A stretch of 64,000 nucleotides of DNA from Eledone cirrhosa. Taxonomy: Eukaryota. Location: the NCBI GenBank assembly GCA_964016885.1, contig OZ024752.1, forward strand, positions 15,128,001 to 15,192,000, in the 5' to 3' direction. Below, one piece after another: positions 14,074 through 50,072 of this stretch. Position 1 is the stretch's first letter. Each line of letters begins with the position of its first letter. The translations under genes and the position numbers were made by a program. The notes under the pieces were generated by a model. The model ran no database searches and was not told the origin of the DNA. It saw nothing but the letters and a program-made list of their open reading frames with translations.

Positions 14074-14212
14074 TAACGAAGGAAATGTGGTAAGGAACCA
14101 GGTGGACCATAACGCACCAAAGTACTCAATACTTGAGGTAGTAGAGTGGGTAATAGGAACCAGTAAGACCCCGACAGCTGAGCTCAAGCCGTCGGGGTCT
14201 TACTGGTTCCTA
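14074..14212 (-). mobile_element. Short PLE-type terminus with fold-back
   Basis: Inverted repeat TAGGAACCAGTAAGACCCCGAC/GTCGGGGTCTTACTGGTTCCTA; hairpin at 14121-14147; same family at 29046-29148, 37258-37410 and 40570-40615; between (TA)n. Confidence 0.7.
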
Positions 14213-14232
14213 TAAATATATATATATATATA

Positions 14233-14992
14233 ATAATGATGAGCTGCGCGTTGCAAATGGGGTACATATGAAAAAGTAAGTCCTTCATCAGTGACCCTCC
14301 AACCGTCCCAGGCATTTCATCGCTTTAAGGGCCATATACCTCAGGTTGGTGCGAACAACGGCTAAAAAAAGTCGTTGGGACACGTAAATAAAGGGGACGT
14401 TAGGGTAACAAACAAAATGGTTTCAAAATGGTTTCATCAAAATGGTTTTCAACTTTCACTCACTCATTCTCTGTCACTACCTCTCCTCCTCCTCCTCCTC
14501 CTCCCCCTCCTCCTCCTCCTCCTCCTCCTCCTCCTCCTCCTCTTTCCTCCTCTTTCTTCCCGTTTGACCTGTGTGTAATTCTTTTCTCGCGCGTTCTTGG
14601 TCAAGCCGGTATGAATTTTTTTTCTCTCTCCCTCTTTCGTCTGCGACTTCACAAAACTTATGTTTACCGAATTCGTAGACCTTCTTCTTCTTCCCCCCGT
14701 TAGACCTGTGCGAAATTCCTTCCTTGCTCACATTTCAACCAGGTTTGATGGTCTTTTGTCTCTTGTTCACGATTTCACCGAGTTTATATTCATAGAAATC
14801 TGGGACTTGTCTCTTTCTTCTCACTTTCCGTTGCTTAAACCATTTTGTTTGTTACCCTAACGTCCCCTTTATTTACGTGTCCCAACGACTTTTTTTAGCC
14901 GTTGTTCGCACCAACCTGAGGTATATGGCCCTTAAAGCGATGAAATGCCTGGGACGGTTGGAGGGTCACTGATGAAGGACTTACGTTTTCAT
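14233..14992. mobile_element. Fold-back PLE-like insertion (~155-bp inverted arms plus ~35-nt tail)
   Basis: 14268-14421 is the reverse complement of 14836-14992; CTGATGA near the arm end; (TA)n on both sides. Confidence 0.65.
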
Positions 14993-15058
14993 ATATATAT
15001 ATATATATATATATATATATAATATAAGATCAAAAGATGGTTAAATGAGTTCCATGTA

Positions 15059-15125
15059 TTTTATTATGCGCATTTCAAAAACAAACATCATCATGCAATA
15101 ATATTTGTGTTTTCATCAGATAAAA
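15059..15125 (-). ncRNA. Type I hammerhead ribozyme (inverted copy)
   Basis: Reverse complement of 15254-15320. Confidence 0.8.
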
Positions 15126-15253
15126 CAGGAGAACATGATATGAAGGCTAAAAAACACTTGTGGATAGTGCAGTTTTAAATCAACATATCATTATGTTGAT
15201 TTAAAACTGCACTATCCACAAGTGTTTTTTAGCCTTCATATCATGTTCTCCTG

Positions 15254-15320
15254 TTTTATCTGATGAAAACACAAATATTATTGCATGATGATGTTTGTTT
15301 TTGAAATGCGCATAATAAAA
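15254..15320 (+). ncRNA. Type I hammerhead ribozyme, palindromic stem III
   Basis: TTTTAT-CTGATGA-stem II-GAAA-TGCGCA-TA-ATAAAA. Confidence 0.85.
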
Positions 15321-16128
15321 TACATGGAACTCCTTTAACCATCTTTTGATCTTATATTATGTATACTCCAGTCCTACAAACTGTAGAGTGCTTCTTACCC
15401 GATATCTGCATTGCTTTATTGTACTACAATAAAACTCACCTCCTACATATATATATATTTATATATATATTTATATATATATATATATTTATATATATTT
15501 ATATTTATATATATATATATTTATATATTTATATATATTTATATATATTTATATTTATATATATATATATATATTTATATATATATATATATATTTATAT
15601 ATTTATATATATTTATATATATTTATATTTATATATATATATATATATTTATATATATATATATTTATATATATATTTATATATATATATATATATATTT
15701 ATATATATATATATATTTATATATGTATATATTTATATATACATATATTTATATATATATATATATATTTATATATATATATATATAAATATTTATATAT
15801 ATATATATATTTATATATGTATATATTTATATATATATATATTTATATATTTATATATTTATATATATATATATATTTATATATATATATATATTTATAT
15901 ATATATATATTTATAGTATTAGTTATACTATTTATGGTTATGTAAACACAAAACCTTAAGCAGTTGTAAGTATTTTACACACACCCTAAATAGTGGTAGG
16001 CAGTAATGTATTACTACCTTATTACCAGTAAGTTAAGTAGCTCAATGTAAAAACATCAGATGATTTACAGAGCAGTTATATGAAATATATGAAATATAAG
16101 AATCAAAGAACTGTTCAAAACATTATTG

Positions 16129-16175
16129 TGCTTACAGCTGTTTCCTCCAAACCGAGGTTTGGATTCTTCGGAGCA
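16129..16175 (-). ncRNA. Hammerhead ribozyme in the 3' pLTR (CCGAAGA core variant)
   Basis: TGCT-CCGAAGA-ATCCAAACC TC GGTTTGGAG-GAAA-CAGCTG-TA-AGCA; further copies at 20328-20374 (-) and 20527-20573 (+). Confidence 0.7.
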
Positions 16176-47277: not shown

Positions 47278-47866
47278 CTAGCAGTGGTACCCGGCGTTGC
47301 ACGGGAAAAGGTATTGTAAAATATATAACCGCCTTAGCTAAGCTTAGTATTGCCACAGCCACGGCTGGCAAAGAAATAAGGTTCTGGTGGTACGTAAGTA
47401 AGCAACACTGTGGCTTAAAACGCGAGGAAGAAGTGTGTGCACTTACCAACTGTTTGGGGAATGAGTGTGAGATTTGTCTTGAGCAAGGGGGGAAGAATAA
47501 CCGGAGGCAGCAGACACCCAGACATACAGACAGATATTATAAGGGCACGTTCTGGACGCAGAGCGAATTGTAGGAAGTGACGTAATGCAGACAGCCAGGC
47601 GTACAGTCAGATGTTATAAGGGCGCGACGTTATATCTATGTATCTATCTAAAAAGAGAAAAACTTAGAATTATAGAGAGATCGCTAAATCGACTAACGTG
47701 GTCCTTAGGGCATTGAAAATTTGAAATCATTTTTGCTCAGAACAGTCCCTGAAACCTAAGTATTACATGTGTAAAGTCTGAAAACAGTTGGTTGGGTGGT
47801 TCTTTAGTTTTAGGGATTCAAACTCACACACACACAAACAGACATCCTCAGTTTTATATATATAGA
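47278..47866 (-). mobile_element. Non-autonomous Helitron
   Basis: Minus strand starts TCTATATATATAAAA and ends in hairpin CCCGTGCAACGCCGGG-N8-CTAG; inserted between A and T with no TSD. Confidence 0.8.
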
Positions 47867-48242
47867 TATATTATATATATATATATATTATATATATATA
47901 TATATATATATATATATATATATATATATATATATATATATATATATATATATATATATATATATATATATATATATTATATATATTATATATAAATGAA
48001 AATATAGAAATTAATGTGAGCAAGAAGCCAACAGTATTTCATAATATATAAGTGACTATAACGTCAAAATGGAAAATAATTAACGTAAGATATCGGAAAA
48101 TAATTCAAACTCAATTCAAAAAAATAAAGTCAGAGATTTTATCCACAGATTTTGTGAAATTCAGGGAAAAAACAAATAGAGTCTTAACTCAGAATAAAAT
48201 AAATTTTAAATACTCATCCTTCAATTTGGAAAAACTACAAAT

Positions 48243-48323
48243 GCTCTATATAGTCTTAAAAATACTATTTCACGAAACTTTTCTGTGGTATTAGTCACGG
48301 TAGGAATCGTTCCTCAGTAGAGC
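48243..48323 (-). ncRNA. Type I hammerhead ribozyme (within the PLE-type fragment ~47995-48430)
   Basis: GCTCTA-CTGAGGA-ACGA..TCGT-GAAA-TAGT..ACTA-TA-TAGAGC. Confidence 0.75.
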
Positions 48324-48614
48324 TCTACACGATAACCAAAAATGTCACTGCCAAAATATGCCAAAAAGGGAATTTAAAAGCAGGCTACTTCTCGTGCGGA
48401 ATTATGAAAATAAACACGCAAGGAGAGACATATATATTATATATATATATATATATATATATATATATATATTATATATATATATATATATTATATATTA
48501 TATATATATTATATATATATATATATATATATATTATATATTATATATATATTATATATTATATATATATTATATATATATATATATATATATATATATT
48601 ATATATATATATTA

Positions 48615-49180
48615 ATAAGGTAATGAATTCTTTTACAATGGAATCAGCTCGAATGAGGAAAAATATCACCTGAGCAGTGTATAAATTAATATGTAAGTGA
48701 TGAAACACAGATACCAACACATCTGTATATATATTGCAAAAGAAAAATTTAGCCAGATTGAAGTATACTAATACTACAGTTTGTCCATATCGATTTAAAA
48801 TAATAAATCAACGGAGACGAACTGTATTGCCAAAAGGCCGTGATGTTTAGACACATGTAAGTTTCAAAATCAAACCTGTTCCGTAGATAAGTTTAGACTT
48901 TAAGATCCAAATATGTTTCGAGTTAAATAAGTGTAAAAATATCATGTCCCTCTCTCCTCAGTAAACATCCAGAGACAAATTGATATGCTTCACTTCTAAA
49001 TAATTTAAAATTATTGTGCCTTTTGGCAATACAGTTCGTCTCCGTTGATTTATTATTTTAAATCGATATGGACAAACTGTAGTATAATAATTAGTATACT
49101 TCAATCTGGCTAAATTTTTCTTTTGCAATATATATACAGATGTGTTGGTATCTGTGTTTCATCACTTACATATTAATTTA
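48615..49180 (-). mobile_element. Fold-back hammerhead element
   Basis: ~48680-48839 is the reverse complement of ~49017-49181; tail hairpin GCTC/GAGC at 48647-48675. Confidence 0.8.
48842..48969 (-). ncRNA. Hammerhead with ~89-nt stem II domain
   Basis: GATGTTTA-CTGAGGA-[89 nt]-GAAA-CTTACATGTG-TC-TAAACATC (8-bp stem I). Confidence 0.55.
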
Positions 49181-49540
49181 TATATATATTATATATATAT
49201 ATTATATATATATATATTATATATATATATATATATTATATATATATATATATATTTATATATATATATATATTATATATATTATATATATATATATATA
49301 TATTATATATTATATATATATATATATATATATAATATATATATATATATATTATATATTATATATATATCTATATTATATATATATATTATATATATAT
49401 ATATATTATATATTATATATTATATATATTATATATATATATATATTATATATTATATATTATATATATATATTATATATATATATTATATATATATTAT
49501 ATATATATATTATATATATATATATATTATATGTCGTGCA

Positions 49541-49722
49541 TTTGGCAGTATCGGTAGAGGATTGGACGCCATGCTTTGACGCATAGAGTTACAGCCCTTG
49601 CCATTCTGAGTTAAAATCCCGCCGAGGTTAACTTTACCTTTCATCCTTACGGGGTCGATAAAATAAAGTACCAGTAATGTACTGGTGAATTGCTGACCAT
49701 GTGCCAAAAAATAGAAACAATT
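49541..49722 (+). mobile_element. tRNA-derived SINE
   Basis: Head, core and tail present. Confidence 0.85.
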
Positions 49723-49737
49723 ATATATATATAAATA

Positions 49738-50072
49738 TGTAATTGATGCTGGATGCTTAAAGTGTCCGTATGCGGTAGGCCGTATGGGTACTCAATGCCC
49801 TCGTAGAGCAGAGTATGATATCAGAGAAAAAAGAGAATCGGTGTTGCGGCGAAAGGTATTTATTGAACACATTACAAATGTTTCTCAAAAGACCAGCTCG
49901 GGGCACGATCGATATAGTGATCACACCTGACTCTGAAATCAATACAGTCGTCACCATATCGCCATATCGATCACCTTATCGATCGTGCCTCGAGCTGGTC
50001 GCCCGAGAAACATTTGTAATATGTCCAATAAATTCCTTTCCTCTCACACTGGTTCTCTTTTTTCTGTGATAA
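49738..50072 (-). mobile_element. Fold-back PLE-type terminus (diverged arms)
   Basis: ~49818-49924 versus ~49968-50071 inverted; tail hairpin at 49787-49814. Confidence 0.7.

Follow-up and report, generated by a model that had tools for sequence, protein, structure and literature searches.

A 64-kb stretch of the Eledone cirrhosa genome (GCA_964016885.1, contig OZ024752.1, forward-strand positions 15,128,001 to 15,192,000; hereafter the window) is 33.5% GC, packed with (TA)n, and carries an intact Penelope-like element (PLE) together with many fold-back insertions, in which two element copies stand head to head. Copies in this 3.0-Gb genome end against (TA)n at two sharp sites, which we call S (the site at hairpin 1) and L (the tailed, downstream site). 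Each site is followed by a bulged hairpin, and nearly every fold-back has one end of each kind. A preliminary description of the window had taken the intact element for a Naiad and noted that copies stop just upstream of a conserved hairpin. The second observation held, with ten window ends lying 2-9 nt from the hairpin and 547 of 560 ends beyond the window falling into one of two classes, while the first did not.

The family A element and the fold-backs of the window

The intact element and the remains of a second autonomous family comprise the following features.

15910..20616, minus strand: family A insertion assigned to the Hydra clade of PLEs, consisting of a unit, a 5′-truncated tandem copy (pseudo-long terminal repeat, pLTR, 20118-20420) and an inverted arm (20420-20616)
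~15913 (L) and 20612-20616 (S), minus strand: family A ends, junctions with (TA)n
17619..20117, minus strand: 832-aa open frame, reverse transcriptase (RT) followed by a C-terminal GIY-YIG-type nuclease
20248..20281, minus strand: family A hairpin 1, after the S site, in the pLTR copy; second copy at 16040-16073
20099..20115, minus strand: family A hairpin 2, after the L site, at the junction of pLTR and open reading frame (ORF)
20527..20573 (bounds approximate), plus strand: putative hammerhead of minimal type I, its core variant, from a motif scan, with the cleavage position 42 nt before S
20370 and 16171, minus strand: cores of further family A hammerhead copies, from the motif scan
37466..37640, minus strand: family D 3′ terminus with hammerhead, hairpin 1 and tail, probably that of the second autonomous Hydra family
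38871-39752: ORF fragment of the second autonomous Hydra family

The single ORF of family A encodes an RT followed by a C-terminal GIY-YIG nuclease, with the catalytic RT motif about midway and VIY..YVG near the C terminus (both located by eye). Read by eye against the accessible part of the published account of the Hydra clade of C-terminal, endonuclease-containing (EN+) PLEs (Craig et al. 2021, PMC8557442), the protein carries the RWR, DKT, CxCx5C, CxxC and CxH motifs that mark this clade: an RWK-like motif, DKG changed to DKT, a CxCx5C linker, and CxxC and CxH around conserved E and N, with no CCHH. The insertion target is (TA)n, and near the 3′ end lies a putative hammerhead, a fold of minimal type I whose core is variant in family A and whose score is below the Rfam gathering score. 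Shared with the clade as described there are also the pLTR, the inverted 5′-truncated copy and a tail that is often one-sided. By contrast, the tail reported there is 30-40 bp and the unit tends to be <3 kb, whereas here the tails span 65-166 and the family A unit measures 4207 bp because of a 1.7-kb 3′ region. A Naiad would have an N-terminal nuclease and DKA and would lack a canonical hammerhead; here the nuclease is C-terminal, the motif is DKT and a hammerhead is present. By these sequence features the intact element belongs to the Hydra clade of Penelope-like retrotransposons and is no Naiad. Pfam gave no match for either Hydra protein, and Rfam none anywhere in the window, hammerheads included. 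Family A is young, its 150 best genome matches being 91-100% identical and ~100 of them retaining open frames of at least 826 aa; the second autonomous family has 719-aa frames.

The fold-backs and S-ended copies are listed below. For each fold-back end, the two distances run to the R of RCTC, the first from the last base matching the template and the second from the first base compatible with both element and (TA)n. Window junction distances, the ORF count, cut-to-S distances and the hairpins in published consensi were counted by eye.

14073..14213, minus strand: family F, S arm to 14213, tailed arm to 14073, hairpin 1 at 14124-14147; end 14212, 5/8 nt
15019..15448, plus strand: family B, S arm to ~15019, tailed arm to 15448, hairpin 1 at 15365-15389; end 15020, 4/7 nt
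20612, within the family A insertion above: 3/8 nt
23998..24364, minus strand: family B, S arm to 24364, hairpin 1 at ~24058-24082; end 24362, 4/7 nt
27692..28084, minus strand: family C1, S arm to 28084, hairpin 1 at 27756-27780; end 28083, 5/9 nt
28647..29030, plus strand: family C2, S arm to ~28647, hairpin 1 at 28943-28963, hairpin 2 in the related family f9; end 28647, 9 nt with one junction mismatch
43701..44874, minus strand: family G, 591-bp non-coding tandem unit, end 43701 before hairpin 44227-44286 and end 44874 before hairpin 44105-44121; end 44872, 5/11 nt
45778..47017, plus strand: family H, S arm to ~45778, hairpin 1 at 46883-46942; end 45778, 2/2-7 nt
48613..49182, minus strand: family I, S arm to 49182, hairpin 1 at 48647-48675; end 49180, 4/8 nt
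49738..50071, minus strand: family K, S arm to 50071, hairpin 1 at 49790-49814; end 50072, 4/7 nt
36826..36997, plus strand: family B copy, S-ended
40572..40616, plus strand: family F copy, S-ended
1482..1600, plus strand: C-type copy, S-like end

All ten fold-back end points are genuine junctions of element and (TA)n, and in the partner arm an RCTC...GAGY hairpin follows shortly after the corresponding position. The end at 44872 is indeed hairpin-adjacent, but it represents the downstream, second site of family G, and the opposite arm (43701) is hairpin-adjacent as well. Three copies had also been described as solo copies ending at the same place. Two of them, at 36995 and 40615, do end at the sites of their families, although the first may not be solo, as a tail end from its family is found near 35655; for the third, at 1600, only the read-through of a related family is available for comparison, in which the hairpin is 4 nt away.

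Two end sites, each followed by a hairpin

Beyond the window, the analysis covered 79 stretches of 10 kb picked arbitrarily, 40 complete family A insertions selected solely by an intact ORF start, and loci from searches. TA-abutting 3′ ends were compared with 28 family references using class windows 29 and 27 nt wide. From 619 ends we removed the 59 contributed by one flawed reference, whose end lies inside a microsatellite; for reference f17, 58 L ends were treated as an artefact and left out. The 560 ends used comprise 262 S, 285 L and 13 elsewhere; as the references stop at L, ends beyond L are invisible to this census. The distribution is bimodal in every family with sufficient copies, and single-base modes dominate, with 33 and 31 of 88 family F ends falling on two bases. 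In this sample, the histogram of ends, which had been proposed genome-wide as a check, shows sharp ends. Of 186 S ends that could be scored, 185 show no return of the element past the TA tract (17 further ends ran off the locus), and the one exception is likely a chance 11-mer; this excludes in-place growth of the microsatellite. Two-site ends are general in this genome and are probably so across Hydra.

On the sense strand, most families have a minimal hammerhead (motif scan), then 34-52 nt, an AT-rich stretch and the RCTC...GAGY hairpin. Thirty of 32 sites (24 S, 8 L) fit a form consisting of RYUC, an upper stem and loop of 3-63 nt, a 2-nt 3′ bulge (U[UAC]) and GARY. The stem covaries: across the 30 sites the outer pair is G-C in 14, A-U in 11 and another pair in five, and the first upper pair is C-G in 14 and U-A in 13. 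The bulge reads UU in 15, UA in eight and UC in seven, and is therefore U[UAC] in 30/30 even though its letters were left free; the search for the partner strand favored a 2-nt bulge, so this register is partly built in. The strict form occurs at 22 of 32 sites, compared with a chance of 0.3% per 12-nt window and a background of 0.29 per kb, measured in 390 kb of arbitrarily chosen genome. Within the 4.2-kb sense unit of family A, it is found just once, at S. The hairpin assignments for f19, f21 and f30 are doubtful. By eye, the hairpin is also present in three of six published Hydra consensi, these three being from coral and sea cucumber (Hydra-2_Amil, Hydra-1_Ajap, where it occurs twice, and Hydra-2_Ajap); variants seem to occur in the Crog and Obim consensi, and Hydra-1_Amil ends short of the hairpin position.

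A hairpin likewise stands behind the tail. In families A and G the tailed end lies 4-5 nt ahead of a second hairpin, visible in the window itself. For families F, B and the C-like f9, which were searched for read-through copies with a pattern that did not require a hairpin, the recurrent continuation is a second hairpin and then the start of the Hydra ORF. Single or few read-through copies also place a second hairpin after L in families D, f12 and f18. Overall, the second hairpin follows 3-7 nt past the tail end in 8/8 families with usable read-through, and is itself followed by the ORF in five. Across the tandem junction, hairpin 1 is separated from hairpin 2 by 65-166 nt. At the L end of family H the read-through pattern matched one copy, the continuation of which was unrelated, and a family B read-through into an A-like hairpin (L079) was discarded as a chimera. 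Because a second hairpin follows in 8/8 families, the tail end is internal and not the end of the RNA, contrary to the earlier suggestion that one of the two priming events takes place there. The tail is the stretch between the S and L start sites.

To place the start relative to the hairpin, the S end was mapped onto the partner arm in 76 of 137 pairs, 70 of which have the motif nearby. The last matching base lies 2-5 nt from the hairpin in 59 of these 70, and the first base common with (TA)n lies 7-8 nt away in 55, a register that supports the hairpin-fixed internal start that had been envisaged. The distance from hammerhead to S is variable (34-52 nt, and ~77 in family G by eye), as is the S-L spacing. 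A TAT or ATA triplet starts at -8 in 13/30 sites and at -7 in 12/30, versus 1-8 at positions -22 to -10, and at least three alternating T/A bases occur at 59/70 mapped ends. In family A, 12 of 53 S junctions have one or two extra template repeats of 7-9 nt before the (TA)n; the comparison, raw read-through matches, gave 2 of 127, probably one copy counted twice. Such repeats are the product that realignment of a paired primer end would be expected to leave. Together, the triplet and the repeats support pairing between the (TA)n primer and the short AU stretch of the template, as had been proposed.

In the tailed arm of the window's family A insertion, a 9-nt duplication falls exactly at S (16076-16095) and is present in neither the pLTR copy nor the inverted arm; it perhaps reflects a slip as the polymerase passed the other primer. 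Aligned contigs have a few loose ends near 20121 and 20285-20289, to which we give no weight.

Composition of the fold-backs

Among the 40 family A insertions, 31 are fold-backs. Both ends are visible in 29 (L233, an end of which is masked by N, was excluded here but included as main-S in the arm comparison below), and 29/29 have one S and one L end, an outcome with a probability of 2^-29 if the ends were independent. The long arm can be either S-ended or L-ended. The remaining nine insertions are direct, six ending at L, two at S and one out of view. Across all families, 137 of 144 pairs are S+L and none is L+L, the five largest family groups giving 99/102; as the references were drawn from tailed fold-backs, each can contribute at most one circular pair. 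A de novo scan for fold-backs had called 38/150 segments 'symmetric', mostly, it appears, because they were split at TA runs within elements, and family-based pairing was used instead.

The arms of one insertion share a source. Family A copies are ~99% identical, and in 27 insertions the two arms differ from each other by 0.13%, as against 1.06% from other insertions, with minor alleles common to both arms at 122/124 sites. Both arms therefore come from the same source lineage. The pairing of ends and these common variants agree with the earlier proposal that two priming events would build each insertion. At the centres, the arms overlap by 1-5 nt in 21/27 and by at least 2 nt in 15/27 (chance 16%), while six have inserted bases. 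The centres of L212, L220 and L228 contain templated element inserts of ~27-31 nt, which suggests template jumps during arm joining. Any target-site duplication is masked by the (TA)n target.

The window holds other repeats with related architectures. A fold-back at 33455-34139 has two tailless arms with an identical end place; another at 34417-34995 has a hammerhead and arm ends ~45 nt apart, with no RCTC hairpin; and 24554-25449 is a retrozyme-like 463-bp tandem unit with a hammerhead and an inverted arm. An abundant ~190-bp repeat resembling a short interspersed nuclear element, with an A/T-rich tail (1754-1882, 29403-29722, 50654-51522, 53936-54444, 56381-56584 and others), also forms head-to-head pairs, which are not PLE fold-backs. 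Two RT fragments of the long interspersed nuclear element type (Pfam RVT_1; 7964-8629 and 59620-62177) are unrelated to the PLE ends.

Proposed priming at two hairpins and its alternatives

The insertions have two end sites, two hairpins, a fixed register, one-of-each pairing and arms of common source. As an explanation we favor, with some reserve, twin priming on one RNA, in which RT seated on each hairpin would set the start ~8 nt upstream, from each cut (TA)n end. In this mechanism, the nuclease would cut both strands of the palindromic (TA)n, and each 3′ end would pair over 2-5 nt with UAU/AUA at about -8, where a possible slip could add the template repeats. Both complementary DNAs (cDNAs) would then grow in the direction of the RNA 5′ end, with the downstream cDNA displacing the upstream cDNA. 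Their 3′ ends would anneal via 1-5 nt and be filled in, leaving a fold-back of two head-to-head arms, one ended at S and the other at L. Loss of one cDNA would yield a direct copy. Since each start is 5′ of its hairpin, the hairpin would be missing from the copy, so only tandem (pLTR) copies would regenerate a two-hairpin template; the need to restore the hairpin would thus explain the pLTR. A single RNA would be the simplest account of the one-of-each rule.

Several findings weigh against twin priming at hairpins. The motif is missing at 2/32 sites and the strict form failed at 10/32; 15/70 mapped S ends fall outside the 7-8 register, 61/137 pairs could not be anchored, and the sample is weighted toward families A and F. 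Four pairs are S+S (one apparently miscalled) and three combine S with another end. Variants shared between arms fit one RNA, two sibling RNAs of one locus or later conversion alike. In L216:4510-5228 and L227:2686-5228, the starts of the two arms differ by no more than 2 nt in unit position and the centre is a near-perfect palindrome, which suits snap-back better. Moreover, the starts of the anole element Poseidon PAc lie inside an AC-rich stem-loop, and the available text of that study calls these starts non-homologous to the cut DNA (PMC11167929), in contrast to the primer-template pairing supported here for Hydra. Finally, five (TA)n fold-back families (L070:9085-9286, L085:9201-9739, L228:9429-9867, L189:3883-4383 and L231:7586-7811) have two fixed ends 40-60 nt apart and no RCTC hairpin; their called pairs are 10 S+L and 2 S+S, and they possibly represent another PLE clade with a signal of its own.

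The shared variants would equally be accounted for if hairpin-fixed starts were used on two RNAs of one locus, held by an asymmetric dimer, a form of the dual priming proposed for L1 (PMC2837659, in the part seen), and overlapping arms would then need no strand displacement. However, such a scheme requires an extra rule to force S with L in 29/29 fold-backs, and with so many near-identical copies, arms of differing source would be expected more often than the 2/124 discordant sites; we consider it unlikely. The palindromic centres of L216 and L227 and the identity of the arms are what one would expect if a single cDNA snapped back (self-priming, PMC3846280), or if a nuclease resolved a DNA intermediate (PMC8557442), the hairpin serving as a DNA stop or cut signal. 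Yet the L-ended arm does not lie within the S-ended strand in L214, L215, L224, L225, L232 and L234, and thus is no copy of it. Copy-back would also reach S before L and so predicts S+S, which is absent among main-S insertions; the junction repeats indicate polymerase initiation, and in vitro starts coincide with the tail boundaries in the portion of PMC11167929 available. These explanations are distinctly improbable.

That one priming event occurs at the RNA 3′ end and the other at the hairpin would suit the appearance of most window copies, in which the tailed arms enter (TA)n with no hairpin in view. Since 8/8 read-through families have a second hairpin 3-7 nt past the tail, this would hold only if transcripts are cut there, and it is very unlikely. 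We give slightly less credence still to the hammerhead, or TA microhomology alone, as what sets the ends. The hammerhead does precede S in most families and at least three alternating T/A bases mark 59/70 ends, but the cut-to-S distance varies, the motif scan of the window located no hammerhead in the S-L interval, and ribozyme mutants retain insertion in vitro (PMC11167929, as far as its text was available). Longer TA runs elsewhere in the elements go unused, as only 13/560 ends are off-site. In so extremely TA-rich a region one might also think of microsatellites that expanded later, or of elements nested into AT-rich spots, but with 185/186 ends lacking resumption, copies ~99% identical and a one-of-each rule left unexplained, the probability of this explanation is close to nil. 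The outcomes that the preliminary description had set against its own proposal, namely broad ends, microsatellite growth and use of AT-rich sites regardless of the hairpin, were therefore not what was found.

Much of the setting is established. The one-sided tail and inverted pLTR of PLEs are known from the Hydra clade account, which, in the part available, ascribes the tail to nuclease resolution and describes neither a hairpin behind the ends nor a strict S+L rule (PMC8557442). For Poseidon PAc, a PLE of another clade, the available portion of Frangieh et al. 2024 (PMC11167929) reports that, in vitro, RT starts at two internal points which bound the tail and lie downstream of the hammerhead, that cleavage is AT-rich, that both strands are extended and that the protein is predicted to be dimeric, so internal priming itself is not new; a repeated hairpin and the per-insertion pairing of starts are not reported in the main text. 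The nearest known mechanism is L1 twin priming, in which, according to the part of PMC2837659 seen, two target ends likewise prime two cDNAs and give an inversion, although it involves the poly(A) end and a variable internal site, non-overlapping arms and a minority of events. Here, by contrast, both starts are internal and fixed, the arms overlap by up to kilobases, and 31/40 sampled insertions are fold-backs. In telomerase, a sister RT, RNA structure places an internal template, to which the primer aligns over a short stretch, and repeats are added. In Hydra, repeat addition would be occasional slippage, followed by synthesis over kilobases. Family G resembles non-LTR retrozymes in being a non-coding tandem unit with PLE-type ends, but differs from them, as far as the seen part of that preprint goes, in retaining both hairpins, its deviant hammerhead core being assigned by eye only (bioRxiv 10.64898/2026.07.22.740005). 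In the literature searched, which takes in only a minority of subscription papers, we found nothing that describes the repeated hairpin, its register or the rule that pairs S with L.

The origin of the PLE tail and inverted pLTR is stated as an open question in the available parts of both PLE studies (PMC8557442, PMC11167929). PLEs are the sister group of telomerase RTs, and a covarying hairpin, a near-absolute pairing rule and ~100 open frames make this origin directly testable. It is possible, if still short of probable, that Hydra PLEs rely on an obligate, double-ended form of telomerase-like priming, in which a two-headed RT-nuclease would read two copies of the hairpin, each of them positioning an alignment region of 3-5 nt at a point 8 nt upstream, and so write one RNA into both ends of the break. 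If so, a single mechanism would account for the tail, for the inverted pLTR and for why tandem copies are needed, and the two hairpins would constitute a portable code to load any RNA into (TA)n sites. Annotators would, in turn, learn where Hydra ends fall and which non-coding repeats are passengers.

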